From IMG/VR virus record IMGVR_UViG_3300031521_000011, positions 32,001 through 96,000 of that record: 64,000 bases of DNA; one strand, written 5' to 3'. The notes under the pieces were generated by a model. It did no database searches, had not been told where the DNA came from, and worked only from the letters and a program-made list of their open reading frames with translations. The position numbers and the translations under genes were made by a program. The stretch comes from a virus. This document shows, one piece after another, positions 8,819 through 61,984 of the stretch (positions within the stretch are counted from its first letter, which is position 1; each line of letters opens with the position of its first letter).

Positions 8819-8847
8819 TTGATATATTGGAAGATTTATCTTATAAT
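8819..8847 (+). promoter_or_regulatory. sigmaA/sigma70-type promoter
   Basis: TTGATA-17bp-TATAAT. Confidence 0.75.
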
Positions 8848-8870
8848 AAATAAAAAGGATGGTGAGTGTT

Positions 8871-9206
8871 ATGGAAAAGATATCTATGGAAAAAATAGCG
8901 CTCCAGGCCGGTATCAAATATAAAATTTCAGGTAAGGTTCCGAGAGATATTAGGGCCATGCAAACAATAAACTTAGTTAAGAGTAATCTTAAGAAGTATA
9001 TTGCCTTGGTAAACAAGACAAAAAAGGCTACTGGCCTATCGTATAAGTCGGGAGAATTTTCCAATGTTCAGAAGAATATTGAATCTGGAAATGAAACCAT
9101 CAGAATGCTGACAGATATGAGGAAAAATACATTCCCACTCATGATAAAAGCGCATGGTAATAGTAAAAAGACTGTGTTGAAAAAGATTCCGAAAGAGGTA
9201 TTTTAA
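8871..9206 (+). CDS. basic putative virion (internal head) protein
   Basis: MEKISMEKIA N-terminus with KxA motif; Lys-rich. Confidence 0.6.
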   Translation: MEKISMEKIALQAGIKYKISGKVPRDIRAMQTINLVKSNLKKYIALVNKTKKATGLSYKSGEFSNVQKNIESGNETIRMLTDMRKNTFPLMIKAHGNSKKTVLKKIPKEVF

Positions 9207-9207
9207 A

Positions 9208-9711
9208 ATGAATAAGCTTGCAATGTACAAAGAAGCCATCTACAAACGAGCAACACGTGTTGCCAATCCCTATATATTTAGGGGTCCAGCATCGAATGAG
9301 GACCCTGAATCCTACTCAGCCCGGCTGCAAGGCATGTACGATAAGGGTGAGAAAATAAAGAACACCGCCAACATCGCCAGCCTTGGTATTGGTGCTGGCG
9401 CATTGGCGACAAGTATCCTGTCCGGACGCGGTGCATCGAAGCGGCTTAAGCAACTCGCAGACTCTGGCAAACTTGATGCCCTGGCTCTCAAGATCAAGAA
9501 GTCCGTTCCTGAAACCAAGCAAATATTGAGCCGTGCTATTGGACGGCGCATTGGCCTCTCTGCCGGCGCCGGAATCGGTGGAGTACCGGCCATGATGCTT
9601 ACTGAGGGAATCGGTAGAACATTGGCCAACAAATCAACACTCAGATCCATGACACCTGATGAGCGTCAGCGCTATAATGATGTCACCAAAATCAGACACA
9701 ATGGAATATAG
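9208..9711 (+). CDS. putative internal head protein with conserved leader
   Basis: MNKLAMYKEAIYKRA leader; two Gly-zipper segments. Confidence 0.65.
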   Translation: MNKLAMYKEAIYKRATRVANPYIFRGPASNEDPESYSARLQGMYDKGEKIKNTANIASLGIGAGALATSILSGRGASKRLKQLADSGKLDALALKIKKSVPETKQILSRAIGRRIGLSAGAGIGGVPAMMLTEGIGRTLANKSTLRSMTPDERQRYNDVTKIRHNGI

Positions 9712-9723
9712 GAGGAAAAGACA

Positions 9724-10374
9724 ATGGACAAGGTAGCAGCATATAAAGAGGCCATCTACAAGGTGGCTGCAGAAGGAAAGAAAAATCCGAATTCATCTTT
9801 TCTGTTCCCCTTGAACCGTGATTACATCCGTGAGGAGGATTTTTCTCCCGCGTATGCAAAGGCGTCAAGGGAACAGGGCCATATCAATAAGGTTGTTGGC
9901 GGCGTTAGCCTGGGTGGTTTGGCACTTGGTGGAGGCAGCGTAATCGGCGGTTTTGCTCTTGGTGCGAAAACCGCAGACAAGGCACGAAGGCTTGCTAAGC
10001 CAGCTGCCAAGGCTACTCTAAATATCATCAAAAGAGATATTTACAATGGCAGAAGAGGAATGCAGGACCTCTTTAGCCCCGTTCATTCTGAGATAGCTGC
10101 TCACAACGTCCTCAACAAGTCTAAGATTTTTAACGACGTAACGAAGCGACTTCGTCGAAACAACAAAATCGCTGACGGCTTAGTCCTTGGCGGGTTACTC
10201 GTTCCCTCAGTCGCGATGGCAGCTGCCAGTGCTCCATTTATGAAGAAGCGTCAGGAAGTGGTCAAAAGCCTGATGAAGTCAGCGCCCCGCAATAGGAGTG
10301 AGGAGAATTTCAAGGCGGACATGCTAAATCTGCCGAAGAACATCTCTCCAAGGAAACGCCACGCCGATGAATGA
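9724..10374 (+). CDS. putative internal head protein with conserved leader
   Basis: MDKVAAYKEAIYKVA leader; Gly-zipper segment VVGGVSLGGLALGGGSVIGG. Confidence 0.65.
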   Translation: MDKVAAYKEAIYKVAAEGKKNPNSSFLFPLNRDYIREEDFSPAYAKASREQGHINKVVGGVSLGGLALGGGSVIGGFALGAKTADKARRLAKPAAKATLNIIKRDIYNGRRGMQDLFSPVHSEIAAHNVLNKSKIFNDVTKRLRRNNKIADGLVLGGLLVPSVAMAAASAPFMKKRQEVVKSLMKSAPRNRSEENFKADMLNLPKNISPRKRHADE

Positions 10375-10380
10375 TACCGG

Positions 10381-10409
10381 TTTACTTGCTCAGTAAGTAG
10401 TGGTATCAT
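10381..10409 (+). promoter_or_regulatory. sigmaA-type promoter with extended -10
   Basis: TTTACT-17bp-TATCAT with TG motif. Confidence 0.6.
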
Positions 10410-10433
10410 AGCAGTCGAAAGGAAGTGTTAATT

Positions 10434-11165
10434 ATGGCAACGGGTAAAAACCTTGTTGATATTCTTGTTCCGAAGATCGGAAGCGGTTATGTATATGGTG
10501 GGCAAGGCCAGATTTGCACGATGGCCATGATCAACACACTCATGGCCCGGTACGGACGCGATCACTATTACTTTAAGGGTTATAGTGCCGAGAAGTGGAT
10601 CGGCAAGCCCTCCTTTGACTGCTCCGGCTTTGTCAGCTGGGGGCGCTACATGCTCGGATTGAACCCAGGCCACAAGAGTTACAGCGCCAATGGCTATTAC
10701 ACCATGACAACTCGCATCTCCAAGCTGCAGCTCTTGGCTGGCGATCTCTGTTTCATCGTGAACAGCGATGGCCACGCTACCCATGTTGGTGTATATATGG
10801 GGAACGGTTACGTTGTTCAGGCTGCCAGCACAAAATCAGGCGTTATCAAAACGAAACTTGGTACCGGTTGGAGCGGCTACGGCAGACTGAAGGACCTAGT
10901 GCAGGTTGTCGTGAAACCAACCGTTGAGTATACCGAGATTAAGTTTGGAGCAAATGGCCCCGAGGTTTATCAGATGCAAAAGGCGCTGGCCCTCCTGAAC
11001 TACAACCCAGGTCCGCTCGACGGAGTCTTTGGGCCACTGACACTGACCGCAGTGAGGGCATTTCAAAAAGGAAACCAGCTGTACGTGGATGGCCGCCCTG
11101 GTCAGCAGACTCTCAGTGTACTTTATGGTACCGCAGATGTTGTTCCAAAGAAGGCTGCTGCCTAA
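10434..11165 (+). CDS. NlpC/P60 peptidoglycan endopeptidase with C-terminal PG-binding domain (endolysin or virion lysin)
   Basis: YVYGG, FDCSGFV and HVGVY motifs; PG_binding_1-type VYQMQKAL...DGVFGPLT..AVRAFQ...VDG..G..T. Confidence 0.9.
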   Translation: MATGKNLVDILVPKIGSGYVYGGQGQICTMAMINTLMARYGRDHYYFKGYSAEKWIGKPSFDCSGFVSWGRYMLGLNPGHKSYSANGYYTMTTRISKLQLLAGDLCFIVNSDGHATHVGVYMGNGYVVQAASTKSGVIKTKLGTGWSGYGRLKDLVQVVVKPTVEYTEIKFGANGPEVYQMQKALALLNYNPGPLDGVFGPLTLTAVRAFQKGNQLYVDGRPGQQTLSVLYGTADVVPKKAAA

Positions 11166-11175
11166 ACCGAAGTCC

Positions 11176-11216
11176 AAAAAAAAAGATAGAGCCCGGCCAT
11201 ATGGCCGGGCTGTTTT
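11176..11216. terminator. bidirectional intrinsic terminator
   Basis: AGCCCGGCCA/TGGCCGGGCT stem flanked by A- and T-runs between convergent genes. Confidence 0.8.
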
Positions 11217-11641
11217 TATGATAGGGATCCCATTTCTTTGAGCATGGACAGCTTTACCACCAGGGATACATCTCTTCTTTCCATGTATGGACAGATGATA
11301 TTCTGGAAGATATCATCCCTTCTAACAAGGGCGACGGCGCGTTGATTCCTGGTCATCACCAGGTAATTGTCCAGCGCAGCCACTAATATGTCATTGAGGG
11401 ATACGTCAAATCCCAGATCAGCAGTTTCCGAAACCAGTTTTGTCATCAAATCTTCAGGGATTCTGATCTGAAGATTAACGAACGGCTCTACTGCTGGAGG
11501 ACATTCGACCTTAACCTTCGTCGGCTCCACATAAGTGACGACAATTGGCTCCTTAGGTCTGCGCTTGAACCCAGGCTTTGGACCAGGCTTTTTCCTTTCG
11601 ATGACGTCATCGACATTAACACCTTTGTCGTTTTTATCCAT
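11216..11641 (-). CDS. ribbon-helix-helix (Arc/CopG-like) DNA-binding protein with basic AT-hook-like N-terminal segment
   Basis: RKKPGPKPG; VNLQIRIPEDLMTKL...SLNDILVAALDNYL. Confidence 0.65.
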   Translation of the reverse strand: MDKNDKGVNVDDVIERKKPGPKPGFKRRPKEPIVVTYVEPTKVKVECPPAVEPFVNLQIRIPEDLMTKLVSETADLGFDVSLNDILVAALDNYLVMTRNQRAVALVRRDDIFQNIICPYMERRDVSLVVKLSMLKEMGSLS

Positions 11642-11659
11642 GATAACCCCTCCATTGTG

Positions 11660-11674
11660 TTTTATTGCTTATAC
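11660..11674 (-). promoter_or_regulatory. phage promoter GTATAAGCAATAAAA
   Basis: consensus match upstream of a GGAGGGG RBS; overlaps the -35 of the divergent promoter. Confidence 0.75.
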
Positions 11675-11693
11675 TCCGTTTTTACCTTATAAT
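11665..11693 (+). promoter_or_regulatory. sigmaA-type promoter
   Basis: TTGCTT-17bp-TATAAT. Confidence 0.75.
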
Positions 11694-11715
11694 AAATCGA
11701 GTAGAGGTGAGTAAT

Positions 11716-12462
11716 ATGGAAAAGATATCTCTTGAAAAAGTCCATCCTGCCCTTAAAGAGATGCAGGATTCGTTTGAAGATCCGGTTTCAAAGAAAGTGG
11801 CTACGATGATTGCCACTTCTCATGAATATAAAACTCCCAACATAAAAGCCGGGCACCACTTTACGAGGAATTACAGATGGAGCAATGGCACGATGAAGAT
11901 CAGTGACCTTCAGGGTATCAACAAGCCGATCACGCAGGAAAAGGTTGATAGCCTTGTGAAAGCCATTGGTAAGTCTGGCAGGGTAGATCCTTTCGTTGTC
12001 GTGAACCAGTTAGATGCCATCCGCCCACAGACGCCCGGCAAAAAAGTATTGATCGACGGACATCACCGGCTGGAGGCCTGCAAGAAACTCGGCATCGATG
12101 AAGTCCCTGTATATCGCGGCGACTACACTGGCGATGCTCACAGGGATATTGAGGAATTAAAGAAGGCAGCCAGCTTTGCGTCTGTCTATAATTTTGTTTA
12201 CAATAATCCATACCTTGGTATGGGAAAGGAAGCCTCTCAAGATGGCATCTCGGAAGTCCGGCGGCTCACAAAAGATCGCCAATTTACCATTGACCCAATC
12301 GTTGCAGGTGAGTTGGGCGGGCTTGGCCTTATGGGAACCTCTCTTATCATCAAGAAGAGACTTCCGTCAAGGAGTACCTTGCTTCGCAACGCTGGTATCG
12401 GCATCGGTCTCGGCAGCGCCGCAATTGGCACGGCTCGCACGATCAGAAAGGGTGAAAAATAA
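11716..12462 (+). CDS. ParB/Sulfiredoxin N-terminal-domain protein, putative virion cargo
   Basis: LIDGHHRLEACKKLG motif; MEKISLEKV leader, KxA sites, C-terminal Gly-zippers. Confidence 0.75.
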   Translation: MEKISLEKVHPALKEMQDSFEDPVSKKVATMIATSHEYKTPNIKAGHHFTRNYRWSNGTMKISDLQGINKPITQEKVDSLVKAIGKSGRVDPFVVVNQLDAIRPQTPGKKVLIDGHHRLEACKKLGIDEVPVYRGDYTGDAHRDIEELKKAASFASVYNFVYNNPYLGMGKEASQDGISEVRRLTKDRQFTIDPIVAGELGGLGLMGTSLIIKKRLPSRSTLLRNAGIGIGLGSAAIGTARTIRKGEK

Positions 12463-13589
12463 TGGGAAAGACTTATATGGAAGAGATGTTCAAAAACGCA
12501 GCAAGCGAAGAGGATGATTTCGCCAACCTTATGGGAAGTCTTAAACATACCAATCGTGATGATTGGGAGAGCGCAGTGACGAAGCATAATCCAAACTGGA
12601 AATATGTCTATCCAGTATCGCCAGATGGTGGAGCTCCATATGTTCTTCAGGAGGGCAATAGATCCAGTGGACTGATCGCCATGCATCACAAGAATGGAAA
12701 AATATCCATTGCTCTCTCTTTTCATCCTGAAGGATTTGATCCAAATGAGCACGTGCGGTCCGTATTTGATGTTTCTGGATCAGGGCGCAGAAACGAAGGC
12801 TTTACACTTGATAATGCTGCATCTGCTAACTTTCATCCCAAGGGTTTTCATGGAGAAGATGCATACAGCGTTACAGATAAAGGGCAAGTTCGCCATGGGC
12901 GTGGTGAGCGCCAGGCGGTAGCTCCTAAAGCGAAACCTCAACCGAAATCCGAACCGAAGGCTGAACCAAAGCCAGAGCCGAAACAGGAACCAAAGACTCA
13001 ACCAAAGCCTGCTGAGTCACAGATGCAACAGGCGTTTTCGCAACCTCAACCAAAAGCAGCGCCACAGCCCCAGCCAGCGCCCCAGGCTGCACCGCAGCCA
13101 CAGGCACAGCAGCCCACCCCACAAGTACAGCCTCAATCCGCGTCGCAGCCACAGGCCCAGCCACAGCCTCAGCAGCAGGCTACACCTAAAGCTCAACCAC
13201 AACCGCAGGCAGCCCCGGCAGCAGCGCCAGTTCCTCCCGTTGCGGCTGCAGAGGGAGTTGAGCAGGCCGCAGCTAAGGAAGCACCACAAGCCGAAAAAGG
13301 CTTGCTTACAGCCATCAAAAAGCTTAAACTATCACCAGGATTAGCGAAGGCTGCACCATGGGTTGGTGGAGGCGTTGCCGGATTAGCGGCGGGCGCTGGC
13401 TTGATGGCGATGAGCAACAAAAAGAAACAGCAAAAGACTGCAGTATATAAAGAAGAAATTTATAAACTGGCTGGCCTGATGTCCGCTCCTAAAGCAGTGG
13501 CAGCAAAGGTACCATCCTTCAGTAAGCCGAAGATCGCAAAAGCGGTAAATCGTGCTCGTAGAGCATCATTCGTAAAATCAATTCATTAG
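12462..13589 (+). CDS. putative internal head protein with Pro/Gln/Ala-rich linker
   Basis: PQ/PKxEP low-complexity tract; Gly-zipper; internal QKTAVYKEEIYKLA motif. Confidence 0.7.
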   Translation: MGKTYMEEMFKNAASEEDDFANLMGSLKHTNRDDWESAVTKHNPNWKYVYPVSPDGGAPYVLQEGNRSSGLIAMHHKNGKISIALSFHPEGFDPNEHVRSVFDVSGSGRRNEGFTLDNAASANFHPKGFHGEDAYSVTDKGQVRHGRGERQAVAPKAKPQPKSEPKAEPKPEPKQEPKTQPKPAESQMQQAFSQPQPKAAPQPQPAPQAAPQPQAQQPTPQVQPQSASQPQAQPQPQQQATPKAQPQPQAAPAAAPVPPVAAAEGVEQAAAKEAPQAEKGLLTAIKKLKLSPGLAKAAPWVGGGVAGLAAGAGLMAMSNKKKQQKTAVYKEEIYKLAGLMSAPKAVAAKVPSFSKPKIAKAVNRARRASFVKSIH

Positions 13590-13598
13590 GAGGAAGTA

Positions 13599-14057
13599 AT
13601 GGATAAGGTTGCATTTTATAAGGAACAAATCTACAAAGTCGCCTATACTTCTGCTGGATATAATAGACTCTATATGACAAAGGACCTTAAAGGCAGAACA
13701 AACGTAAAGTATAAAACACCAAATCGGGTTCCTATGCGCTTTAAGAACGAGCGCGTAGATCCATCAATGTCGATGGTCCCGGCTGGTCCTGTGAAAACGC
13801 ACTCAAATCCCAGCAGACTCAGGCGACTGAGGAAAATAAACAATACTCGCCACGGTCTCAGTAGGGATACGAGAGAAGCAATCCGGCTTGGTGGAGCAGT
13901 TGATTCAAAGGCAGCTAAGGAAATTGCCGAAAAATCATTAGCCCGGGCCGCCAGTAAGGGCATGCCGCTATATGCCGGCGGGGGAATTGGACTTGCTGCA
14001 ATTGCGGCTGCCGCAATTGCAATGAGCAACAAAAAAAAGCACAAAGATGCTGAGTGA
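13599..14057 (+). CDS. putative internal head protein with conserved leader
   Basis: MDKVAFYKEQIYKVA; C-terminal GGGIGLAAIAAAAIAMSNKKK. Confidence 0.7.
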   Translation: MDKVAFYKEQIYKVAYTSAGYNRLYMTKDLKGRTNVKYKTPNRVPMRFKNERVDPSMSMVPAGPVKTHSNPSRLRRLRKINNTRHGLSRDTREAIRLGGAVDSKAAKEIAEKSLARAASKGMPLYAGGGIGLAAIAAAAIAMSNKKKHKDAE

Positions 14058-14068
14058 GGTGGATGGAT

Positions 14069-14770
14069 ATGGACAAAGTAGCTTTTTACAAGGAATATAT
14101 CTACAAGGTTGCCGACGCTTATGATGATATCATCAAGCGTAATGAGGCAAGTAGGCCCAGGATGTATACCGTGAAGCCAAACGGTGAAACAATTCTCGAC
14201 GGATTCATTGCCGACGAAAAATACTCTAAGCCAAATGTGGACCGTACTGTTTCTGGAGTCAAGGATCTGCTGAAAACCAAGGGTGGAAAGCTTAAGGTAT
14301 TGAAGCCATACCTTATTGGCGCTGCTGGCGGCGCTGCCTTGCTTGGGAGCGGCATGTCGCTCATGGAACAACGTCGGAAAAATATGCGTAAGCGCATGCA
14401 TAAATCAGCTTCATTTATTGACAAACTCCTTGGAAAAAAAAAGCCCAAACCCAAGTCTAAGGCCAGACTCCAGTATGATGCTCTGGTAGCAAGCGAAGAA
14501 GCGGCAGAGGCGCGGCGTCTTAAAAGAGAACAGGAAGCTGTTGCAGCCCGGGCAGAGAAATTCAGATCCCAAAGAGGACCTCTTCGACTGACCAGCGGGG
14601 CCTCACAAGCAGCTCCTGCGGCAAAGTCCACAATAATCGATGCAGCACCGACCATTGCAAGAAAGATTCCGAAACAGTTACTCAGGAAGGCCGGGCCGTG
14701 GGCGCTTGGCGGACTTGGTTTAGCCGGGGGTGGTGCGGCAATACTCAGTAGGAAAAAAGAAGACAAATAA
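14069..14770 (+). CDS. putative internal head protein with conserved leader
   Basis: MDKVAFYKEYIYKVA; two Gly-zippers; internal HKSAS. Confidence 0.7.
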   Translation: MDKVAFYKEYIYKVADAYDDIIKRNEASRPRMYTVKPNGETILDGFIADEKYSKPNVDRTVSGVKDLLKTKGGKLKVLKPYLIGAAGGAALLGSGMSLMEQRRKNMRKRMHKSASFIDKLLGKKKPKPKSKARLQYDALVASEEAAEARRLKREQEAVAARAEKFRSQRGPLRLTSGASQAAPAAKSTIIDAAPTIARKIPKQLLRKAGPWALGGLGLAGGGAAILSRKKEDK

Positions 14771-24187: not shown

Positions 24188-25555
24188 TTATCTGTTGGTG
24201 GAGGCAAATTCGATGATATATCGAATAGCTTGCTGACCGCTATCATATACGATGAATTCATTGTGCAATAGACTGCTTCCTGCAACTCCCTTGACACTAT
24301 CAAATCCGGAAGGCGCCTTGAGATGGTAAACGGAGTTTCGCTCCTCTTTGATCCTTCCGCAGGCGACGTCGGCGACGAATAGGAAGGCAGTGGGATGGGC
24401 ATTTTGACGACCACCGAAGCGGCTGCACGCATACTGGGTAGATTTAGTCGATTGATCAGCGAAATAGATTCCAGGTCCAAACATTGCTCCAGTGATATAC
24501 ACCCCCGACAATTGTGTTGGGAGCTTAAGGAAAGAGGAGAGAATCCCGGGCAGGTTGGCCGTTCTTGAGCCATGAAAAAGTTCTTTGACATTACCAATTC
24601 CCTCCTTGAATGCCGGCGCACGCTTCTGCTTTACGCCGAACATATTGACAGCGCTTAGCTTGACGGAGTGATGGTTGCTCTGGGAGTTGATCATATAGTC
24701 CTCCAGATGCCGCCATAGACCTGAACCACGTGGAATCGCCCAAAGATCACTATACAAGGAATCGTAGCGTTTGTCGATATCGTCGCTGACGATGACATCC
24801 TCCATGCGCAGGGAGTCCTCATAAAATTTCAACAGATCAAGCTCCATGCTGATTTTGTCATCATTACCGATGAGGACATCTTCCAGACTTATTTTCCTGC
24901 TGCCGAACGAGCGGGGAATAATGCGGCGATACTGCTCCGATAAACTCTGAATCATTGGAGCATCATGTATCTTGATGGACTTCGCAATCTCCTCAAGCGC
25001 TGCCCGGCCCATGCCGATTTGTTTATTACTGAGCTTACCAAGCGGAGCTTTCTGGTCTAGTGTGGCCTGACCATTAATGAATGAAGAAAGGGCTGCTCCG
25101 CTTTCATCGAAGATGTGTTGCACGAACTTCCGGACCTCAGGCTCAAGATTGCTCCGGTTTTCTGCTTTAATGGTAGTTGGGGCAGCAATGACTTCATTGG
25201 CGTCAATCATCTTCTGGGCTTCGGCGCTGCCAGTGGAACTCTGTGCCAGCTCGATCTCCACGTATCCCTTCTTGGTCTTTTCATGGACGATTGCACTGAA
25301 TTCCGAGCGAGCCAGACTTGCAGAGATGCCAGAGTTGCCACGCACCTGTTTTGTGGACGTTACCCCAAGCCTTCCGTATTCAGAGAAAATCCTATAGACA
25401 CCATTAGCTCCCTCATGAAGTTCAATGGTGTAGTATTTGTTCGAGTTTACGCCCACCTCAAAGAAGTTTAAGGTCTTTTTATCCACGACCTTATAGGACG
25501 AGAATGGGCTCCCCACATCCAAGTGAGGAGCCCAGTTAAGTGCGCTTAGTCCCAT
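24188..25555 (-). CDS. PARP-family ADP-ribosyltransferase (WGR + regulatory + catalytic domains)
   Basis: WGR-like KYY.IEL...YGRLG...KTKKGY; PLGKLS regulatory motif; H-Y-E triad in LFHGSR / GAMFGPGIYFA..STKS.QY / HNEFIVYD. Confidence 0.92.
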   Translation of the reverse strand: MGLSALNWAPHLDVGSPFSSYKVVDKKTLNFFEVGVNSNKYYTIELHEGANGVYRIFSEYGRLGVTSTKQVRGNSGISASLARSEFSAIVHEKTKKGYVEIELAQSSTGSAEAQKMIDANEVIAAPTTIKAENRSNLEPEVRKFVQHIFDESGAALSSFINGQATLDQKAPLGKLSNKQIGMGRAALEEIAKSIKIHDAPMIQSLSEQYRRIIPRSFGSRKISLEDVLIGNDDKISMELDLLKFYEDSLRMEDVIVSDDIDKRYDSLYSDLWAIPRGSGLWRHLEDYMINSQSNHHSVKLSAVNMFGVKQKRAPAFKEGIGNVKELFHGSRTANLPGILSSFLKLPTQLSGVYITGAMFGPGIYFADQSTKSTQYACSRFGGRQNAHPTAFLFVADVACGRIKEERNSVYHLKAPSGFDSVKGVAGSSLLHNEFIVYDSGQQAIRYIIEFASTNR

Positions 25556-26474: not shown

Positions 26475-26503
26475 TTGCAGGTATGAGTCAAATCGATTAT
26501 AAT
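26475..26503 (+). promoter_or_regulatory. sigmaA-type promoter
   Basis: TTGCAG-17bp-TATAAT. Confidence 0.7.
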
Positions 26504-26557
26504 GAACTGAGTAAAAAGCATTATACCACAAAACAATCCACAGTTGGAGGAGTTAAA

Positions 26558-27250
26558 ATGAATCAAGTTAAATTCAAGCAAAAGACTGCCACAGAAATTA
26601 TTGAGTTCCTAAAAGAAGCAAGGGCTATGAGGCCAGATGAAAGCAAACATGATCCATATAAAACCACGAAGACTGTAGGAAAGGTAAATGCCATTGATAT
26701 GGGTCTTAATATAGGACAGGACCTGGTTGCGAATATGGCTGGAGCGCTTACTGTCGGATTGGCAGGCACTGCGCTTGGTGGACATTCCAAGTTGCATACT
26801 CCAGAAGATATAGCAAAATTGAAAGAGAGCCTGGAGAGTTATAATCATACGCCTGAAGCACACACCCGATTGCACAATGTTATTAATGAAATGCAGCGTG
26901 GTGGAGAGGCAAGTCTCGGCGATACAATGAAGAACATCGGGCATAGCTTCAGACGTGATGGCTATAAGAAGACTATGGATGGAATTAAGGCAGCCACAAA
27001 AACACCGGCCTTTAAAGATGCTCTTTCATCTTTCAAGAATTCACAAAAGATTCTGATCCCTGCAGGTTTAGGATTGACGGGCCTTTATACCTTAAATGCA
27101 TATAATCAAGATCGAAAAGATCTTCTTGCTCAGCAAAAGGAAATGAAGAAAACTGCAGCAGTCATTGAGCAGTCAATGCCGCATGCCCGGCCAGAAGATA
27201 TTCCAGGGACATACTGGTGGATTCGCTCGATGATGGCCAAAAAAAAGTAA
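26558..27250 (+). CDS. putative internal head protein
   Basis: GGAGGAG RBS; QKTAT, LKEAR and KKTAA motifs; Gly-zippers. Confidence 0.7.
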   Translation: MNQVKFKQKTATEIIEFLKEARAMRPDESKHDPYKTTKTVGKVNAIDMGLNIGQDLVANMAGALTVGLAGTALGGHSKLHTPEDIAKLKESLESYNHTPEAHTRLHNVINEMQRGGEASLGDTMKNIGHSFRRDGYKKTMDGIKAATKTPAFKDALSSFKNSQKILIPAGLGLTGLYTLNAYNQDRKDLLAQQKEMKKTAAVIEQSMPHARPEDIPGTYWWIRSMMAKKK

Positions 27251-27284: not shown

Positions 27285-27362
27285 TGGTTGCGGGTGAAGG
27301 ATTTGAACCTCCGAACCTTCGGGTTATGAACCCGACGAGCTACCAGACTGCTCTAACCCGCG
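27285..27362 (-). tRNA. initiator tRNA-fMet (CAT)
   Basis: cloverleaf CGCGGGT...ACCCGCA-ACCA with C1:A72 mismatch, GGG/CCC anticodon stem, CAT anticodon, TTCAAAT T-loop, encoded CCA. Confidence 0.95.
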
Positions 27363-27367: not shown

Positions 27368-27396
27368 GTTATACCATTTTTACGACTTGCTGTCAA
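27368..27396 (-). promoter_or_regulatory. sigmaA-type promoter of the tRNA
   Basis: TTGACA-17bp-TATAAC with extended TG. Confidence 0.8.
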
Positions 27397-27702: not shown

Positions 27703-27731
27703 TTGCGCCTGTTTTGAGATTGTGGTATGAT
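27703..27731 (+). promoter_or_regulatory. sigmaA-type promoter with extended -10
   Basis: TTGCGC-17bp-TATGAT with TG. Confidence 0.7.
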
Positions 27732-39100: not shown

Positions 39101-39361
39101 ATGGCCGGGACTCAAGCAAATAAAATTCTAGGGCCTATCCGCGAGGCGGCCCTATCCCAGAAGACAATCATACTCGAATACCGTGATGCCGATGGCAAGG
39201 TAACACAGCGGGAGGCGGAGCCTTACGAAATCAACGACAAGGGGCTCTATGCCTTTGCTTTGAATCGTGATGCGATTCGACTGTTCAAGATCGACAATAT
39301 TATCAGTGTTCGCAACACCGGACATCCTTTCATACCACGGTTCCCAATCAAAATCACATGA
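39101..39361 (+). CDS. stand-alone WYL-domain protein
   Basis: ILEYRDADGKVTQREAEPY...LYAF.L.RDAIRLFKIDNI. Confidence 0.8.
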   Translation: MAGTQANKILGPIREAALSQKTIILEYRDADGKVTQREAEPYEINDKGLYAFALNRDAIRLFKIDNIISVRNTGHPFIPRFPIKIT

Positions 39362-39367: not shown

Positions 39368-39395
39368 TTGCAGTATACAATACTTATGTTATAAT
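39368..39395 (+). promoter_or_regulatory. sigmaA-type promoter with extended -10
   Basis: TTGCAG-16bp-TATAAT with TG. Confidence 0.7.
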
Positions 39396-41507: not shown

Positions 41508-43829
41508 ATGGATGTTAAGGAACCAACATTTAGAGCAATGAGCATGAGGGAATTCTCAGCAATCGATCCTCAAGCAAAATCGATTGTGGATTCTTATGGT
41601 GTGGCTGTACCTAAGTCTGCCGCCAGAGAAGAAGAAGGCATGAGCAAGTTTGCCTCATTCCGTCAGAACCTGGTACAGGACCCATACCCATCGCCATTCC
41701 TAAATCTTTCCGATACTAAAATTCCGAACAAGATGTCAGAGTTGTTTGAGCTCTGCCGTTATTTCTATATGTTCGACCCACTCATCGCCGGCGCCATCAA
41801 TTCTTTGGCGACGTTCCCGGTGACAAACCTATATCTCGATGAGAGCAAGATGGCCGACAAGGCCAAGGTGGGCGCTGATGGAAAGAAGACTGGCGTTAAG
41901 GACGATAGTCCGCAGCTTAAAACATATAAAAAGACGCTGTTTGAAAACATCAACCTCAACAAGTTGCTGATTGAGATCGGCATAGATTATTGGTTGTATG
42001 GCAACTGCTTCATTTTCGGCGAGTTCTGGACCAACCCAGATACCAAACAGAAGGAATGGCGGCATGTCGTGAGACTCGATCCGAGTCGCATGATTATCGA
42101 CCATAACGAAGCCACCCGTGAAATCAAGTATAAATGGATGATCCCTGAGAAAATCAGGCGCATCGTTACAATGAAGAAACCCATGAGCGAGTATGAAAAG
42201 ATACCCGATCTGGTAAAGCGTGCTGTCACAAAGAACGAAGCGCTGGTTATCAACCCAAACAATATTTTCCATTTTAGCCGTCCGACGGACAGTATGGGAG
42301 ATACGGTTTGGGGTACGCCGGTAATTGCTAATGTCATGAAACTTCTGATGTACAGAAACGTCATGAGGCAGGCCCAAGAGGCTATCGCTCGGGAGCATAT
42401 CGTTCCTTTCCGCATATATTACTTCGAGAGAAACGCTCAATCCGATCCGATGGTCAACTGGGGCGGCGTCACAGCTGATTTTGCAGCCGAGTTGAACAAA
42501 TCCTCAAAAGACCCAAATTACAAGGTCATCTCCCCTCTGCCGGTTAATGTATTGAACTTGGGCGGCAATGGCCGGGCGCTGATGCTTACACCGGAAATCG
42601 AGCAGGTCCAGGGTGAGATTCTGGCCGGCATGAACGTACCTAGAGAATTTATCTTTGGTGGAGTTACATGGTCGGGCAGCAGCATCTCCCTGAAGATTCT
42701 CGAAAATCAATTTATAACCTATAGGTTATTAATACAGGGATTCTTGAATTTCCTTGTCAAGAATATGGCCAAGGTACGGAATGAATGGCATTCAGAGGAA
42801 GACAACGATGCAATTCCGTCTATCCATATGCAAGATTTGAAAATGCAGGATGACGTTCAGCAGAAGCAGCTCATCGTTCAGATGAACCAAGCTAACAAAC
42901 TTCCTGATGAGCAGCTCTATAAGGCTATGGACATGGATCCTGAAAAAATTGTCGCAGGTCTTGAGGCTGAGGCAATAAAGAGGATAGAGACAGATAAGAA
43001 AATGCAGATCCTCAGGATTGATGCAAATGAGGAAGTGCAGGAAGCAGATATTACCGCGCAAGTAAAACTAGCTCTCTTCAAGGAGAGATTGAGAATTAAG
43101 ATGTCTCAATCTACAGATGAGGTGGAGCGAAACGTTGCAATGCAGATGTTCGGTATGGGGGCAACTCCACAGCCACAAGTTGACGCAATGGGCAATCCGA
43201 TACCCGGACCGGTAGGGCCCGGGGGAGCGCCGGGAGCGCCGCCGGCAGGCCCGGGTGGAGCTCCGGGTACAGACCCAACAGCGCCGCCCGCCGGCCCTGG
43301 ACAACCAATGGCTCCTACGGTAGCAATGGCAGACGCCGGTGATGTTCAAGACCCTGCCGCTGGAAAAGATAAGGCAAATGTGCCGGACCAAATAGATTCT
43401 GTGAATGTCGGCGACACCAAAGATATTGATGCTGAGATTCAAAGAATCTCAGCCATGCCAGATAAGCAAAGAGCTGCAGCTTTAACTCAACTTCCAGCCG
43501 CGCAACAAAAGGCAATTGCAATGAGGATGGAAGCCATGAAAAGCCGCGAGAATTATGGCAAGGGATATGCAGATGCCCAAGCCCTCGCAGAGCGCATCGT
43601 AGCAATGCCTGAGCGTCAACAGGAGGCTGCGCTGAACACTATCCCTGTACAGATGAGGGATCGTGTCATGGTCTTTGTAGAGCAGCTACAGATGCAACAG
43701 CAGGATGACCAAAAGGCACAGCAAGTACAGCAAGGCCAGGCACAGCAAGGCCAGGGCCCGGCGACAGTTGATATGCGTCCAATGCCTGAACAAAAACCAC
43801 CTCGAAGGAAGAGTTTGAACGGAGGTTGA
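41508..43829 (+). CDS. portal protein with Pro/Gln-rich C-terminal extension
   Basis: FDPLIAGAIN, DYWLYGNCFIF, RLDPSRM, IFHF...VWGTP and EILAGMNVP.EFI.G portal-like motifs. Confidence 0.8.
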   Translation: MDVKEPTFRAMSMREFSAIDPQAKSIVDSYGVAVPKSAAREEEGMSKFASFRQNLVQDPYPSPFLNLSDTKIPNKMSELFELCRYFYMFDPLIAGAINSLATFPVTNLYLDESKMADKAKVGADGKKTGVKDDSPQLKTYKKTLFENINLNKLLIEIGIDYWLYGNCFIFGEFWTNPDTKQKEWRHVVRLDPSRMIIDHNEATREIKYKWMIPEKIRRIVTMKKPMSEYEKIPDLVKRAVTKNEALVINPNNIFHFSRPTDSMGDTVWGTPVIANVMKLLMYRNVMRQAQEAIAREHIVPFRIYYFERNAQSDPMVNWGGVTADFAAELNKSSKDPNYKVISPLPVNVLNLGGNGRALMLTPEIEQVQGEILAGMNVPREFIFGGVTWSGSSISLKILENQFITYRLLIQGFLNFLVKNMAKVRNEWHSEEDNDAIPSIHMQDLKMQDDVQQKQLIVQMNQANKLPDEQLYKAMDMDPEKIVAGLEAEAIKRIETDKKMQILRIDANEEVQEADITAQVKLALFKERLRIKMSQSTDEVERNVAMQMFGMGATPQPQVDAMGNPIPGPVGPGGAPGAPPAGPGGAPGTDPTAPPAGPGQPMAPTVAMADAGDVQDPAAGKDKANVPDQIDSVNVGDTKDIDAEIQRISAMPDKQRAAALTQLPAAQQKAIAMRMEAMKSRENYGKGYADAQALAERIVAMPERQQEAALNTIPVQMRDRVMVFVEQLQMQQQDDQKAQQVQQGQAQQGQGPATVDMRPMPEQKPPRRKSLNGG

Positions 43830-51149: not shown

Positions 51150-51186
51150 ATGCTGTGGCCAAATAGATTGACTTTGGCCACAGCAT
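51150..51186. repeat. 14-bp perfect inverted repeat (terminator of the RNAP operon and/or operator over a -35)
   Basis: ATGCTGTGGCCAAA/TTTGGCCACAGCAT. Confidence 0.7.
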
Positions 51187-51196
51187 CTTGTATTAT
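51168..51196 (+). promoter_or_regulatory. sigmaA-type promoter
   Basis: TTGACT-17bp-TATTAT. Confidence 0.7.
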
Positions 51197-51229
51197 AATA
51201 ACAAATGTATCAGGGTATGAGTCAAGTTT

Positions 51230-51343
51230 GCGCTGCTGTGACAATCCAGACGTTCCTTAAGAAAGCGCTGGGCATTGCCCGACAAGGAACCTGCTCCTAA
51301 TGCGGCCGCTAGGGATCATAGCTAGAGGGTGTCGCAGCAGCGC
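51230..51343 (+). ncRNA. candidate structured RNA (multibranch) in the HU leader
   Basis: 14-bp closing stem GCGCTGCTGTGACA/TGTCGCAGCAGCGC; inner stems GTTCCTT/AAGGAAC and GGGC/GCCC. Confidence 0.45.
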
Positions 51344-51374
51344 CTTATATTTTACGAAACGGTGAGGGCGGTAT

Positions 51375-51671
51375 ATGGACAAGGTGGTAAACAATAAGAA
51401 CGATCTTATCCGAGAGGTGGCCGCCTCTACAGGGATCTCCATCCGCCAGGCGGAAGAGATCATCAATACGTTTCTTGGTATGATGCAACAGAAGGTCTTA
51501 GCTGGACAGGCGATTTCAATCAAAGGTTTCTTTGGCATGAGGTATCTCCGGGCAAGATCCAAAGCTGTTCGTGACTTCGAGAATGGAATTCAGAAGCAAT
51601 CAGGAGATCATCTCCGCCCAAAATGTAAATTCAGTGAAAGTTTTGTGCAAAAAATAAAGGAAAAAGGGTGA
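51375..51671 (+). CDS. HU/IHF-family DNA-binding protein
   Basis: NKNDLIREVA, ISIKGF and RPKCKFS motifs. Confidence 0.85.
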   Translation: MDKVVNNKNDLIREVAASTGISIRQAEEIINTFLGMMQQKVLAGQAISIKGFFGMRYLRARSKAVRDFENGIQKQSGDHLRPKCKFSESFVQKIKEKG

Positions 51672-54879: not shown

Positions 54880-55788
54880 TTAGAACAAGCCTTTGGCCTT
54901 TGTACCATCCGGGTTCGCGGCAGCGGCGTTGTCGGGATCGACTTCGCCAGCAGCCTCTTCGTCCTCGTGAGCCATCTCGTTCATGATATCCTGCTCCATC
55001 GCGCGGCTGAACAGTGCGCTGACGGATGAAGTGAGCGCTTCACGACGAAGAGCTTCCTCGGTGCTGCAGGTGCCGTAATCGCCTTCCATGACGTCATAAT
55101 CCAAAACGAAGTAACTGCCGGAGGCATTGGCTTCGGGTTTGGCTTTCAGCTCAAGGTTGAAGCAGAATTGGGGGATGCCCTCCACGAGGCATTTGTAGAT
55201 GAAGCCTTTGGTCGGCCTGACGGATTTGCCGGAGACGATGAAGCGGAACAACTGCTGTTCGCCGCTCTCAGACAAAACCAAGCCCAGCCAGCTATAGCCC
55301 ATATTGCAATCAGGTTTATTTTTACCTTCAGCCTTCGCCTTGTCCCAATTCTGGTAGGGGCATGTGGCGCAGTTGATTTTGCGGCCATTGGTGTCCGTGC
55401 CAGTTTTGCCATCGATGGACCAGCACAGGGGCATGTCGCCACGCTTGAACTTTTCGGGCCAGCGGGTTCTGCGTTTGCCGAGAGCAAGCAGTGTGCATTT
55501 CAGAGAGTCTTCACTCTTCTCTGTCACTGAGTTATAGAACTGGCCTGGCTTTGATTTCTGTCCAGCAACTTCAGCTGATGTATACTGAACCATCTTGATT
55601 TTGGGCAGTTGAATATCAGTCTGATCAACGACTTCCATTCCGGTGAAGTGGCCATCTTCATGTTTGAACTGTGCCCGGAGAGCAGCGGAACGTTCTGCGG
55701 CGCGGAGAGCAACTTCTTTACTATCCTCTGCAGTGGTGGCGGTGGCGGCGGTGGTATCGGCGGTAGCTGCGGGTTTTTTGTCTGCCAT
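54880..55788 (-). CDS. putative ssDNA-binding protein with Cys cluster
   Basis: LPKIKMVQ..S, GQFYNS, C...CxxC...C; acidic tail ending in Phe; lies in the replication cluster. Confidence 0.6.
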   Translation of the reverse strand: MADKKPAATADTTAATATTAEDSKEVALRAAERSAALRAQFKHEDGHFTGMEVVDQTDIQLPKIKMVQYTSAEVAGQKSKPGQFYNSVTEKSEDSLKCTLLALGKRRTRWPEKFKRGDMPLCWSIDGKTGTDTNGRKINCATCPYQNWDKAKAEGKNKPDCNMGYSWLGLVLSESGEQQLFRFIVSGKSVRPTKGFIYKCLVEGIPQFCFNLELKAKPEANASGSYFVLDYDVMEGDYGTCSTEEALRREALTSSVSALFSRAMEQDIMNEMAHEDEEAAGEVDPDNAAAANPDGTKAKGLF

Positions 55789-55842
55789 TTTTCGGAGGCC
55801 TCCTAAGTTTATTTGGGTCTTCATTATACCACGATTTTGTTG

Positions 55843-56124
55843 TTATTTCAGCAAATCTTTAAAAGGTTTGCTGGGTTTGAATGCCGGCGATTGATGAGCG
55901 GGGACGTTGATTTTTTCTCCAGTATGAGGGTTCCGGCTGTCACGCGCTTTTCTTTCGGCGCCTCTGAATGTGCCCAACCCGGCCAAGGTTACAATGTCGC
56001 CTGACTTAACATGACTCTGTATTGCATCATCGGTTGCCTTGAATACATCTTTGACACAAGCTTGAGAAAATCCTGTCTTGTCAGCAACCTCCTTCGCAAG
56101 GTCTGCGCTGCTGATCTTTTCCAT
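55843..56124 (-). CDS. hup: HU-family DNA-binding protein
   Basis: VTLAGLGTF, ERKAR.SRNPHTGEKI.VPA and PAFKPSK motifs. Confidence 0.9.
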   Translation of the reverse strand: MEKISSADLAKEVADKTGFSQACVKDVFKATDDAIQSHVKSGDIVTLAGLGTFRGAERKARDSRNPHTGEKINVPAHQSPAFKPSKPFKDLLK

Positions 56125-58163: not shown

Positions 58164-58247
58164 TCTCAAACCCTCCTCATTACGTGGTGTTTACAGTTTA
58201 CCATAATTCAAAAAAAAGACAAGGGGCGCTTTCGCGCCCCAGTTGTT

Positions 58248-58786: not shown

Positions 58787-59210
58787 TCTCTTGGCACGAT
58801 ACCCCCCTCTCTTGGCAGCAAAAGTGCCTCTCTTGGCAGCAAAAGTGCCTCTCTTGGCAGACTCTTGGCAGACAAATAATTTTGAAACTTTTAAAGCAAA
58901 AGGCTGTACGTGCCATTAGGACTAGCTTCTATATATATATAATATAATATAATAATAATATATAGTATACTATAGAGTGTTTCTGCCAACAGTTTTACCG
59001 GAAAAGGTATGGGGGGGTATATTTTTATTTTTTTTAATATTTTTTTTCATTTCAAAAAAAAAATATTTATCCCCCCGGTACCTTTTCTGAGAATTTCGTG
59101 TCTCTTGGCAGAGAAATACCCTCAAACCCGCATGAATCCTCACTTTACCAGTTTTTGCCTGTGCCAAGAGAGGGGGGTATCGTGCCAAGAGAGGGGCATG
59201 TCGTGCCAAC
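58787..59210. repeat. iteron array + AT-rich core + 31-bp inverted repeat (putative replication origin)
   Basis: TCTCTTGGCA at 58787, 58808, 58829 and 58850 (21-bp period), variant at 58861, copy at 59101; inverted copies at 59162, 59183 and partial 59204; AT-rich tract about 58929-58975. Confidence 0.75.
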
Positions 59211-59234
59211 AGTTACTATTGATACTCCTGAAGA

Positions 59235-59263
59235 TTGTCATAGCACCTTATTGGTGGTATACT
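59235..59263 (+). promoter_or_regulatory. sigmaA-type promoter with extended -10
   Basis: TTGTCA-17bp-TATACT with TG. Confidence 0.75.
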
Positions 59264-59290
59264 TTTTTAAGAAGGAGCGTGACTTAAGCT

Positions 59291-61939
59291 ATGCTCGAAA
59301 AGATGACTACATTCAGAATTAAATTTTCTGACATCGAGATAATCGACGGCGAGTTTATAAAACAGGCGTCGGACAATTTCCTGCCCGAAGGGCATATGTA
59401 TGACCCTGATTTCCTTTACATGAAAGTTCGTGCTGTGTCGGCTGGTGAGTACTGGGGCCCGAATAAGAATGCTGACTTCTTCCCTGAAGCAGAACTTGTC
59501 AAATTCTACAAGACGTTCCTTGATGCTCATGCATTTAAGAACCATGAGAATAAAGATGTCGCCAATGCAATTGGTGATGTTATTTCCGCAATCTGGAATG
59601 ACGAGATGAAGTACGTCGAGCTGTTAATCCGGATTGAGCGCTCTCTGGCTCCGACGATTGTACGTGGCTTTGAAAAAGGCTTCATGACAGATGTGAGTAT
59701 GGGATGCAAAATTTCACATAGCATCTGCTCGAAGTGCGGCAATATTGCAAAGATTCCTTCGCAATATTGCGATCATATAAAGTATCAGAAGCACCATGTT
59801 TCTGACGATGGTGTGCGTATTTACGAAATCAACATCGGTCCTAAGTTCCATGATATCAGCGCCGTGCTGAGTGGAGCCGATAGAACAGCGAAGATGACGG
59901 GGTTGTATATTATGGGAGATAAAGTTGCCTTCACCGAATGGTCAGAGATGTCAAAGACGGCATCCATGGTAGACTCGTTTGCTTCGGAAGAATTTGGCCC
60001 CGGCAATCCTTTCTACAAGGTCGCCTCCGCCAAAGAGATCGAAAACTTCAGCATCAATGCTATTGAGTTCAAAATGGGTGATGATACCTTTAGTAAGGTC
60101 GCCGGCACGAAGCAAGGCCTTATGGACAAGGTTGCTGAGATCAAGAAAGAGATCCAGGCAAAGATCATGTCTGTTGCTCGCGGCGATGCAATGAAAACTG
60201 AAGGGCTCGATGAAGTCATTGATCTTTTTAAGATGTTTTACACAGAATTCCTTACACGCGAACAGTGTGTTGAGATTGGGAAGAAAATCAGCAGCATCGC
60301 CCGCAGGGAACAGATGCCGACTTCGGATGTTTTCAATACCCTGATAGGCATGCTGGAAGTGGCCGGCATAGAATTATCTTCTCTTGAGTTTGATCGCATC
60401 ACAAGCCAGTTTATGGATGGCGATGGTGACAGTGATTGCTGCTCTGGCGCTGATGGCTTCCGTCCTGAAAATTACAATGGGATCAAGCAAGAATCAGATG
60501 ACGCCATATCTGAATTTGGTATGGACGGCGGGCTACCGGCGGCGCTTAAATTACTGAGCATCATCCGTAATGCCCAACATAGAGGTCAGCCTATTCCTTT
60601 AAGTGAAAATCAGAACATGGGCACAAATATGCGCGTTATTATTTCACGCATCAACGCTCCGCAGCCGCCAATACATAATCCTTTGCTGGGCGACGAGATG
60701 ATGGATATGATTCGGCCAATGATTCCAGGCCGCAGTATGTATCGCCAGCATCTCATTCCTCGTGTGCTTCGTATTTCAAAAATGGCATCAACTCCAAACA
60801 TACGCAACCTGGAACATTTCATTGGACCGCGCATTCTGAAGACAGCTGCACAGAAAGATCTCAGCTATGACGCTGCCGGCGCAGCCTCGATGTATGCATA
60901 TGCCCAGTATCAGAAACTTCGCGAGAAGCTTGCGTTCAGCAATTGGCTGGATGATGAGTTTGCAAAATATGCTCACGAATTTGGTGCTGAGGGCATCGTG
61001 AATGAAATCGACAGCCTCGGCTCAATGGAGAAGGTAGCCCTTCTTGGTAAGGGATATACTGTTCGCAAAGCCATGCTGATCGGTGCGCCGCTGACATTCG
61101 GATATTCCGCCGCCCAGCGTGCACGCATGAGAAATGGTGAGAATGTTTCTGGCTTTAACCGCTATATTGCAGAGAATCCGGCAAATGCATTTATGATCCA
61201 GGCTCTTATGGGTCCTGCAGCATGGAAGGGCGGAAAAGCCTTAGCCGCCAAGCTTGGTGGGAAAGCAGCTGTTGCTGGTAAAAATGTTGGTGCATCTCCG
61301 GCAGTACATAATACCAAGAATGTTTGGCGCAATAGTAAGCTACTGGCTGACATCAAGGCTGACCCAACCCTCCAGAGGTGGCACGACTTCTTCACGAAGT
61401 ATTCTGAGGATAGCTCTTATATTCTAACCAAAGAAGCGAGTGAAGCTTTCGAGCACTATGACTCCACTGAAGGTGTGGATATATTCAAGAACGAACAGAT
61501 TGACAAAACTGCCATGGAGAAATTTTCATTGACACAGGTACAGGTGGATTCCATTAAGATGTCGATGATCATGGAATGCATGGAGAAGAGTGCAGCCAGC
61601 TCTGGAATTCTGAGGCAAAATTCTCTCACGAGAAATGATGTCTCAAATTTCATTAAGGTTTGTGCTGAATATCTCTCAGGTGAGGTCACAAAAGAAGCTG
61701 GCGATCTTAAAGATGTGATGATGAACACGGGAAGCGAAATGCTGTTTGCGAATCACAATCTGTCAATGCTACCGATTATGCCTGGAGCAGTTATTGACAA
61801 CGTTATATTCCAGGGGATTTTCAAGGCTTTGGAGAAGGCGGGAGCTAAAGGCAAAAGCAAAGGCGAGGTGGCTACGAACCTCGGGCAGAGCGCAATAAAG
61901 CAAATTCAGCAACCGGCAATTCCACCTATAAAGCCATAA
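59291..61939 (+). CDS. prohead maturation protease with long KxA-rich C-terminal extension
   Basis: N.N.D.F, FKNH.N, DVSMGC (putative catalytic Ser), CSKC..C.H and DISAV motifs; first gene of the head module. Confidence 0.75.
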   Translation: MLEKMTTFRIKFSDIEIIDGEFIKQASDNFLPEGHMYDPDFLYMKVRAVSAGEYWGPNKNADFFPEAELVKFYKTFLDAHAFKNHENKDVANAIGDVISAIWNDEMKYVELLIRIERSLAPTIVRGFEKGFMTDVSMGCKISHSICSKCGNIAKIPSQYCDHIKYQKHHVSDDGVRIYEINIGPKFHDISAVLSGADRTAKMTGLYIMGDKVAFTEWSEMSKTASMVDSFASEEFGPGNPFYKVASAKEIENFSINAIEFKMGDDTFSKVAGTKQGLMDKVAEIKKEIQAKIMSVARGDAMKTEGLDEVIDLFKMFYTEFLTREQCVEIGKKISSIARREQMPTSDVFNTLIGMLEVAGIELSSLEFDRITSQFMDGDGDSDCCSGADGFRPENYNGIKQESDDAISEFGMDGGLPAALKLLSIIRNAQHRGQPIPLSENQNMGTNMRVIISRINAPQPPIHNPLLGDEMMDMIRPMIPGRSMYRQHLIPRVLRISKMASTPNIRNLEHFIGPRILKTAAQKDLSYDAAGAASMYAYAQYQKLREKLAFSNWLDDEFAKYAHEFGAEGIVNEIDSLGSMEKVALLGKGYTVRKAMLIGAPLTFGYSAAQRARMRNGENVSGFNRYIAENPANAFMIQALMGPAAWKGGKALAAKLGGKAAVAGKNVGASPAVHNTKNVWRNSKLLADIKADPTLQRWHDFFTKYSEDSSYILTKEASEAFEHYDSTEGVDIFKNEQIDKTAMEKFSLTQVQVDSIKMSMIMECMEKSAASSGILRQNSLTRNDVSNFIKVCAEYLSGEVTKEAGDLKDVMMNTGSEMLFANHNLSMLPIMPGAVIDNVIFQGIFKALEKAGAKGKSKGEVATNLGQSAIKQIQQPAIPPIKP

Positions 61940-61955
61940 TCTTTACCCGAATACT

Positions 61956-61984
61956 TTGCCAAACGTAATTGGATGTAGTATTAT
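61956..61984 (+). promoter_or_regulatory. sigmaA-type promoter
   Basis: TTGCCA-17bp-TATTAT. Confidence 0.7.

Follow-up and report, generated by a model that had tools for sequence, protein, structure and literature searches.

Two strand-partitioned promoter classes in an uncultured tailed phage encoding a single-chain RNA polymerase and a sigma-70-family protein

The locus described here raises the question of how transcription is shared between a phage-encoded RNA polymerase (RNAP) and that of the host. It is a stretch of 64,000 nt, hereafter the window, comprising bases 32001–96000 of the 168,244-bp IMG/VR contig IMGVR_UViG_3300031521_000011, which represents an uncultured tailed phage with a G+C content of 46%. 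A preliminary description of the window had proposed that host RNAP makes late RNA from sigmaA-type promoters at the head of plus-strand islands, while the phage RNAP makes early RNA. We find two promoter classes that are split by strand, a single RNAP gene and, just beyond the window, a sigma-70-family gene that the description had overlooked; assignment of the phage RNAP to the minus-strand motif (class 1) and of the host RNAP to the sigmaA-like sites (class 2) is the most economical reading and is partly supported.

A simple gene call on the whole genome yielded 211 genes with a coding density of 92% and strong GGAGG ribosome-binding sites, and a megablast search of 20 kb against phage records returned no match at the DNA level. 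Genes for the large terminase subunit (TerL; 33398–35224; PHROG 675, E = 1.5e-53), the portal protein (41508–43829) and lysin-domain, ParB-like nuclease-domain, HU-like and WYL proteins lie on the plus strand, as do the gene for an 882-aa protein with a head-protease-like N-terminus and the genes for many proteins with shared N-terminal leaders. The minus strand encodes an NAD-dependent DNA ligase, a PARP-like enzyme and XPD-type helicases within the window and, beyond it, a Toprim primase-like protein, DNA polymerase III alpha, a thymidylate-synthase-like enzyme and most tRNAs. Gene content thus supports a partition of virion and packaging genes to the plus strand and of replication and metabolism genes to the minus strand.

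The −35/−10 pairs previously noted at 11 plus-strand positions are all real, each consisting of TTGnnn, a 16- or 17-nt spacer and TA(T/x)(A/x)(A/x)T, and the variant at 10381 reads TTTACT-17-TATCAT as stated. The −35 element begins with TTGC in 7/11, and a scan based on TTGACA lists only some of the sites because TTGCnn scores 3/6. A position weight matrix (PWM) built from textbook frequencies, and hence independent of the phage, gives the listed sites 10–15 bits. Genome-wide, a strict pattern is present in 13 of 27 plus-strand but only 2 of 64 minus-strand upstream regions (Fisher p = 7.6e-7), whereas dinucleotide shuffles of the plus-strand regions contain 0.70 ± 0.81 matches (maximum of 3 in 300 shuffles) and the antisense control 1; a loose pattern gives a genome-wide total of 83 against 66 ± 9 expected. 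When 18 sites from the entire genome were aligned on the −10 element, TTG was found in 15–18 of them, and T1, A2 and T6 of the −10 in all 18. The fourth −35 base is C rather than A in 10/18 and the −35 hexamer matches TTGACA at 3–5 of 6 positions; the spacer measures 17 nt in 16 sites and 16 nt in the remaining 2. The sites are located 19–56 nt upstream of start codons.

Class 1 is a 15-nt motif, GTATAAG-(T/A)A-ATAAAA (as a template, GTATAAGTAATAAAA), which heads minus-strand units. With up to 3 mismatches allowed, the genome has 34 copies on the minus strand and a single one on the plus strand, nearly always in intergenic regions, 16–25 nt upstream of minus-strand start codons. A scan of the window with no more than 2 mismatches to GTATAAG-nA-ATAAAA retrieved 21 motifs within 1859–58760, including those at 1859, 3431, 3817, 11660, 16121, 24169, 27663, 33332 and 56668. 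No conserved −35 element emerged from the class 1 alignment. The TATAAG block resembles a −10 element in which G replaces the invariant last T, and the A-run would sit at the expected transcription start site. Class 1 is therefore a promoter that the host holoenzyme should not read, and its designation as early is taken from the functions of the genes behind it.

The sole RNAP gene of the genome (44254–51144, plus strand) is encoded downstream of the portal gene and specifies a single-chain beta-beta' fusion of 2296 aa with the Pfam domains Rpb2_6, Rpb1_2 and Rpb1_5. Rpb1_2 and Rpb2_6 each have one match in the whole genome, both within this open reading frame, and PHROG matches relate the protein to phiKZ/AR9-type enzymes. 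Thus, the enzyme is of the multisubunit type, as had been recognized, and its homologues are particle-associated in phages Arash and YerA41. In the tail module, a plus-strand gene at genome positions 114137–114979 (window numbering 82137–82979; L006:2138–2980) encodes a 280-aa protein homologous to Arash gp10, which is annotated as a sigma factor and present in particles. Single-sequence scans leave this protein below the curated Pfam and NCBIfam cut-offs, and the genome translated in six frames gave no match to Pfam Sigma70_r2 despite the presence of the gene; the relationship is revealed only by a profile of 38 homologues, which matches SigA (E = 4e-16) over positions 65–273, from region 2 through 4.2. 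A search of 1.8 billion representative proteins gives approximately 50 homologues, with lengths of about 270–300 aa throughout. An AF2 model (pLDDT of 86) is matched by Foldseek to sigmaA and sigmaS chains with a probability of 1.00. Judged from the profile and the predicted fold, the protein is a sigma-70 family member with regions 2, 3 and 4 in order. Its family consensus appears to lack the SigA residues of region 4.2 responsible for recognizing the −35 TTG, which fits a promoter without a −35 element and speaks against class 2 as a target of this sigma. The protein begins with MHYKEYEIEKLA... and has a YKE..EK(L)A leader similar to that nearly confined to plus-strand proteins. No second sigma factor was detectable in the genome by family scans or by homologue searches with Arash gp196 and with a sigma factor from a relative described below (L013).

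The phage sigma and the phage RNAP were also modelled as a pair. In the predicted complex, sigma residues 36–44 and 61–77 (region 2) contact RNAP residues 1303–1346, the clamp helices, with a score of 0.77 compared with no more than 0.01 in 3 controls; the runs share at least 30% of their contacts and the partner pLDDT is at least 66. Of 80 solved complexes, 58 reach this mark, as do 2 of 110 mismatched pairs, but sigma-beta' is a textbook pair, so that the score may reflect only likeness to solved holoenzymes and is not proof of binding.

Relatives were gathered by a TerL protein search combined with contig look-ups, since the TerL related-locus search on its own gave a single distant fragment. 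TerL homologues form a family of considerable size among metagenomic sequences, including several contigs of approximately 166 kb, two of which bear Clostridia metagenome-assembled genome (MAG) labels (Herbinix and Paraclostridium). Three relative loci, with TerL identities of 78% (L011), 55% and 47% and G+C contents of 43%, 34% and 38%, respectively, all show the order terminase, portal, small gene and a 2285–2308-aa RNAP, with class 1 motifs on the opposite strand and sigmaA-like sites before plus-strand genes. In L011, 5 orthologous class 2 promoters retain their hexamers and spacing while the spacer sequence has diverged, and one tail-module promoter is kept likewise in L010. The lower-GC relatives have class 2 promoters with weaker −35 and more extended −10 elements, whereas class 1 is barely altered and its 15-mer is near-invariant among relatives of 33–46% G+C. 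Exact 15-mer matches in viral contigs were mostly single chance matches, the informative ones being clusters on contigs of ~100–167 kb (L089 and L091); L088 has one match with the same upstream arrangement. On the Herbinix-labelled MAG contig, a SigF/SigE/SigK-like sigma gene follows a class 1 motif (L013:2634–3293, minus strand). We had considered it as a dedicated late sigma of the family but dropped this idea, given that the protein is of the sporulation type and has no homologue in the studied genome; it points instead to a spore-forming host, and the host is probably an endospore-forming Firmicute.

The class 1 core GTATAAGTAA recurs in Salmonella phage Arash (OQ632216). In ~100 kb of its genome, GTATAAG has 19 intergenic copies on the minus strand compared with a single one on the plus strand, the surrounding consensus being tgGTATAAGtaaagTGTAa, and sigma70-like pairs such as TTGACT-17-TACTAT and TTGTTT-17-TAAAAT precede plus-strand starts. 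The presence of both promoter classes in the relatives and in Arash suggests that the two-class layout is old and independent of the host. RNAP subunits yield more spectra than any other protein in the Arash particle proteome, with 100% coverage of gp10, although the authors of that study caution that phage preparations could contain abundant enzymes as carry-over (PMC10585845). Particles of YerA41 contain RNAP subunits and a sigma factor (PMC7354516); in this phage, the RNAP genes peak at 5–15 min and the sigma gene is late. The word "promoter" appears in neither of the 2 papers (PMC10585845 and PMC7354516).

How, then, might the 2 classes be read? We propose, with about even confidence, that an injected phage holoenzyme reads class 1 and the host sigmaA polymerase reads the plus-strand class 2 sites. 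In this scheme, the beta-beta' RNAP and the 280-aa sigma would both be packed into the virion and injected; the holoenzyme would transcribe the class 1 minus-strand units for replication and nucleotide metabolism, and the host sigmaA holoenzyme would serve the plus-strand virion and packaging islands, the RNAP gene, the tail operon, the tRNA and a few minus-strand units. Class 1 is assigned to the injected enzyme because there is one RNAP gene, it lies behind the portal gene, the promoter appears independent of the host and the architecture of the sigma matches it; the constancy of class 1 across hosts likewise fits a phage-encoded reader. Class 2 is assigned to host sigmaA on account of its −35/17/−10 geometry, its drift between relatives and the canonical TTGACA at the tRNA gene. 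As to timing, the early and late designations are assumed from gene function.

Of the preliminary proposal, the division between host and phage RNAP agrees with the strand split, the gene functions and the single RNAP gene, but with a phage sigma present a sigmaA-like promoter is not automatically assignable to the host. As to the equation of strand with temporal class, the promoter classes do separate by strand; strand does not simply equal polymerase, because sigmaA-like promoters appear to drive the tRNA and several minus-strand units and the 23-kb right arm is devoid of the motif. This right arm, the last 23 kb of the contig with Pol III alpha and tRNA clusters, is one of several observations that weigh against the proposed assignment. 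The G directly 5' of the −10 in 10/18 class 2 sites (GTATAAT), as in class 1 GTATAAG, provides the 2 classes with a shared GTATAA core that a single sigma might conceivably read. Near-consensus sigmaA promoters would be expected to fire at time zero, and no restraining element was found. Packaging is suggested by analogy with distant relatives of ~27% identity. Finally, the early expression of RNAP genes in YerA41 implies that plus-strand units may not be late, which makes "plus strand = late" an assumption. By the same token, the puzzle of how strong promoters stay silent early, raised in the preliminary description, may rest on a false premise: class 2 promoters may fire from the start, their output rising as templates replicate.

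The same timing fits an ordinary cascade without injection, in which host sigmaA reads class 2 at entry, making the plus strand early or constitutive, and the newly made phage holoenzyme then activates class 1. Here the enzymes would be assigned as in our proposal but in the reverse order, and no virion polymerase would be necessary. Class 2 sites look strong and unregulated, as such a cascade would have it, and the carry-along envisaged by the Arash authors would account for enzymes in particles. However, replication would be delayed until a protein of 2296 aa had been made from the far end of a 12-kb head operon, both RNAP and sigma are particle-associated in 2 relatives, the RNAP gene lies behind the portal gene in every family member seen as well as in Arash, and the leader of the sigma resembles that of plus-strand proteins. 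We consider this cascade unlikely. Matches occurring by chance in AT-rich intergenic DNA could produce functionless plus-strand sites, and the loose-pattern total is indeed just modestly above expectation; yet the strict pattern far exceeds the shuffles (13/27 versus 0.7), its strand bias is pronounced (p = 8e-7), the spacer is nearly always 17 nt, the sites lie 19–56 nt from start codons, and the relatives conserve hexamers while spacers diverge, which leaves this explanation with next to no credibility.

A different possibility is that the phage depends on host RNAP for neither class, as in phiKZ, its core reading both by changing specificity factor, with captured host sigmaA or an unrecognised phage protein serving class 2. 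The core is of the cellular type and its clamp helices are predicted to take a sigma, the GTATAA core is common to both classes, and some relatives possess a second sigma (Arash gp196 and the SigF/E/K-like gene behind class 1 in L013). In the studied genome, however, a second sigma is not detectable, the L013 protein is more likely a host-manipulation gene, and the sole phage sigma seems to be without the SigA-like residues for −35 reading. Furthermore, class 2 drifts between relatives and class 1 does not, and the promoter at the tRNA gene is a canonical TTGACA one. This alternative appears to us quite improbable, and more improbable still is the specific version in which the viral core swaps a packaged sigma, directing it to GTATAAG, for captured host sigmaA, directing it to TTGnnn-17-TATAAT, with the host core dispensable.

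Compared with known systems, the proposed arrangement is a variant of schemes that divide transcription between a virion polymerase and that of the host, with a sigma factor to be added, and this is the best available but unproven description. The preliminary description had called the logic inverted, but N4 and the crAss-like phage phi14:2 are direct precedents; since these phages already leave virion genes to the host enzyme, such use is less surprising. The comparison with N4 holds at the level of logic: a polymerase is injected for early genes and the host holoenzyme transcribes virion genes, in the order virion RNAP (early), RNAPII (middle) and host sigma70 RNAP (late). The N4 enzymes are single-subunit and T7-like, its early promoters are hairpins, and the studied phage has no second polymerase. 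The late promoters of N4 are weak and require N4 SSB, whereas class 2 sites are near consensus.

In phi14:2, early RNA is still made in the presence of rifampicin, whereas middle and late RNA is not (Drobysheva et al.; bioRxiv 10.1101/2020.03.07.982082). Its virion genes include one for a very large single-chain two-barrel RNAP, which is packaged and transcribes early genes, while the rifampicin-sensitive middle and late genes have host-type promoters. The phi14:2 enzyme is too divergent for beta/beta' hidden Markov models, and neither a common early motif nor a sigma is found. By contrast, the studied phage has a clear beta-beta' fusion with Rpb1/Rpb2 Pfam domains, a predicted sigma-70-family partner and a sharply defined putative promoter of 15 nt. 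The phiKZ/AR9 phages resemble it in their phage-encoded cellular-type polymerase of related sequence and in the proposed use of the virion enzyme for early genes, but they have two RNAP sets with split subunits, are independent of the host polymerase and lack a sigma factor (Iyer et al., PMC7824862). The studied phage stands apart from them in its single fused RNAP gene, its predicted sigma-family partner and the host-type promoters ahead of its virion genes, and neither the two paralogous RNAP sets nor the absence of a sigma that characterize phiKZ-type phages is seen in it. Arash shares the succession of portal, small gene (gp205) and RNAP gene (gp206), a sigma homologue (gp10) in the structural module, and a minus strand with metabolism genes and tRNAs in which intergenic GTATAAG precedes genes, and, like YerA41, it has RNAP and a sigma factor in its particles. 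It differs in that RNAP is encoded by two genes (gp206 and, further on, gp216), the motif runs on as ...TGTAA rather than ATAAAA, and there is a second sigma, gp196; protein identity to Arash and YerA41 is ~25–28%.

Thus, whereas phiKZ/AR9-type multisubunit polymerases work without a sigma at atypical promoters, this phage combines a fused core, a sigma-family protein and a 15-nt promoter, a compact system for studying a minimal sigma that would read a −10-like element without a −35, and the class 1 core is common to phages of Firmicutes and of Salmonella. For a widespread and almost unstudied phage group of ~100–185 kb, this suggests an annotation rule whereby the motif marks the replication strand and host-type promoters the virion strand. 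Arash and YerA41 are cultured, which makes the division of labour directly testable.

The plus-strand genes of the window form six islands, each opened by a class 2 site, with bidirectional terminators at island ends (11190, 14778, 27255, 30542 and 51662); consistent with the preliminary description, units with the terminase, portal-RNAP and protease-like genes are among those so headed. Island 1, encoding small shared-leader proteins and the lysin-domain protein, begins with TTGATA-17-TATAAT (8819–8847; 15.0 bits), and the TTTACT variant, which has a TG, is located within it (10381–10409), before the lysin-domain gene (10434–11165). The promoter of island 2, TTGCTT-17-TATAAT (11665–11693), precedes genes for ParB-like nuclease-domain and shared-leader proteins and overlaps a divergent class 1 motif (11660–11674). 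TTGCAG-17-TATAAT (26475–26503) heads island 3 (26558–27250), and island 4 starts with TTGCGC-17-TATGAT (27703–27731; TGG extended), of which L011 keeps the hexamers with a diverged spacer. The terminase promoter TTGGAT-17-TATAAT (33347–33375) abuts a class 1 motif (33332–33346) and is conserved in L011, where the hexamers of TTGCCT-17-TATAAT (35231–35259) are identical as well. Two class 2 sites, TTGCAT-17-TATCAT and TTGATG-17-TAAAAT, stand in tandem at 36330–36386. TTGCAG-16-TATAAT (39368–39395; TGT extended) heads a unit consisting of a small gene, a 615-aa gene, portal, a 131-aa gene and RNAP. Just past the RNAP stop codon, TTGACT-17-TATTAT (51168–51196) lies 179 nt upstream of the HU-like gene (51375–51671; Bac_DNA_binding, E = 6e-11). 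Island 6, with the 882-aa protease-like protein and head genes, opens with TTGTCA-17-TATACT (59235–59263; TGG), and TTGCCA-17-TATTAT plus TTTACT-16-TATAAT (61956–62022) are positioned upstream of 62021–62611. Beyond the window, a class 2 promoter also heads the long tail operon that contains the sigma gene. A further putative promoter at 65290 (window numbering; TTTAGAGTATAAT) is without conservation in L010 and was not counted.

The three minus-strand sigmaA-like exceptions previously noted were likewise found, and to them we add a fourth. TTGACA-17-TATAAC (27368–27396) is directly upstream of tRNA-Met (27285–27362) and placed to start there; TTGACA-17-TACATT (33052–33080), conserved in L011, precedes 32503–33012 and a downstream AAA_33 kinase-like gene; and the extended −10 site TGGTATAAT (55823–55851) is upstream of 54880–55788. 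The fourth is TTGTCT-16-TAAACT with a TG (58195–58222). Outside the window, the textbook PWM detects such sites at 104417, 122538, 127833 and 133425 (window numbering). Most virion promoters have a TTGC −35, a weaker element than the TTGACA at the tRNA and some minus-strand units; speculatively, this could produce a graded rather than a switched programme.

Several genes and intergenic regions next to these promoters are of interest in their own right. The first gene behind the class 1 promoter divergent from the terminase promoter (33103–33324, minus strand) encodes a 73-aa protein with a weak, below cut-off sigma-70 region-4-like helix-turn-helix, an unproven candidate regulator. An 86-aa stand-alone WYL-domain protein (39101–39361) ends 6 nt upstream of the portal-RNAP promoter, an arrangement kept in L011, L012 and L013; WYL domains are ligand-sensing regulators, and the protein may therefore control this promoter. 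The 179-nt leader between the 51168 promoter and the HU-like gene (51197–51374) may be a regulatory RNA or hold a small unannotated open reading frame; an Rfam scan of the window retrieved tRNA-Met alone, without a match for this leader or that at 26504–26557. A PARP-like protein is encoded amid the class 1-driven genes (24188–25555, minus strand); it has WGR, regulatory and catalytic domains and may ADP-ribosylate a host or phage target, host RNAP being one conceivable target. Plus-strand proteins with no other relationship to one another carry the N-terminal leaders MEKIS(M/L)EKIA and M(D/N)K(V/L)AxYKExIYKxA, both at 8871–14770 and genome-wide, where a loose leader pattern is matched by just 2 minus-strand proteins; the leaders may be capsid-targeting or protease-cleavage signals. 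At the ends of the contig (genome positions 1–207 and 168045–168244), approximately 100 nt inside metallophosphatase-like genes are similar but non-identical, which could mean that the genes are paralogous or that the termini overlap imperfectly; the contig is listed as linear in IMG/VR. Where genes change from the minus to the plus strand, the region 58787–59212 contains inverted arrays of a 21-bp-spaced repeat (TCTCTTGGCA / TGCCAAGAGA) around an AT-rich core of TATA runs and A/T tracts, and resembles an iteron-type origin of replication. A comparable gap, AT-rich and 907 bp long (genome positions 12922–13828), is located at the other minus-to-plus change.

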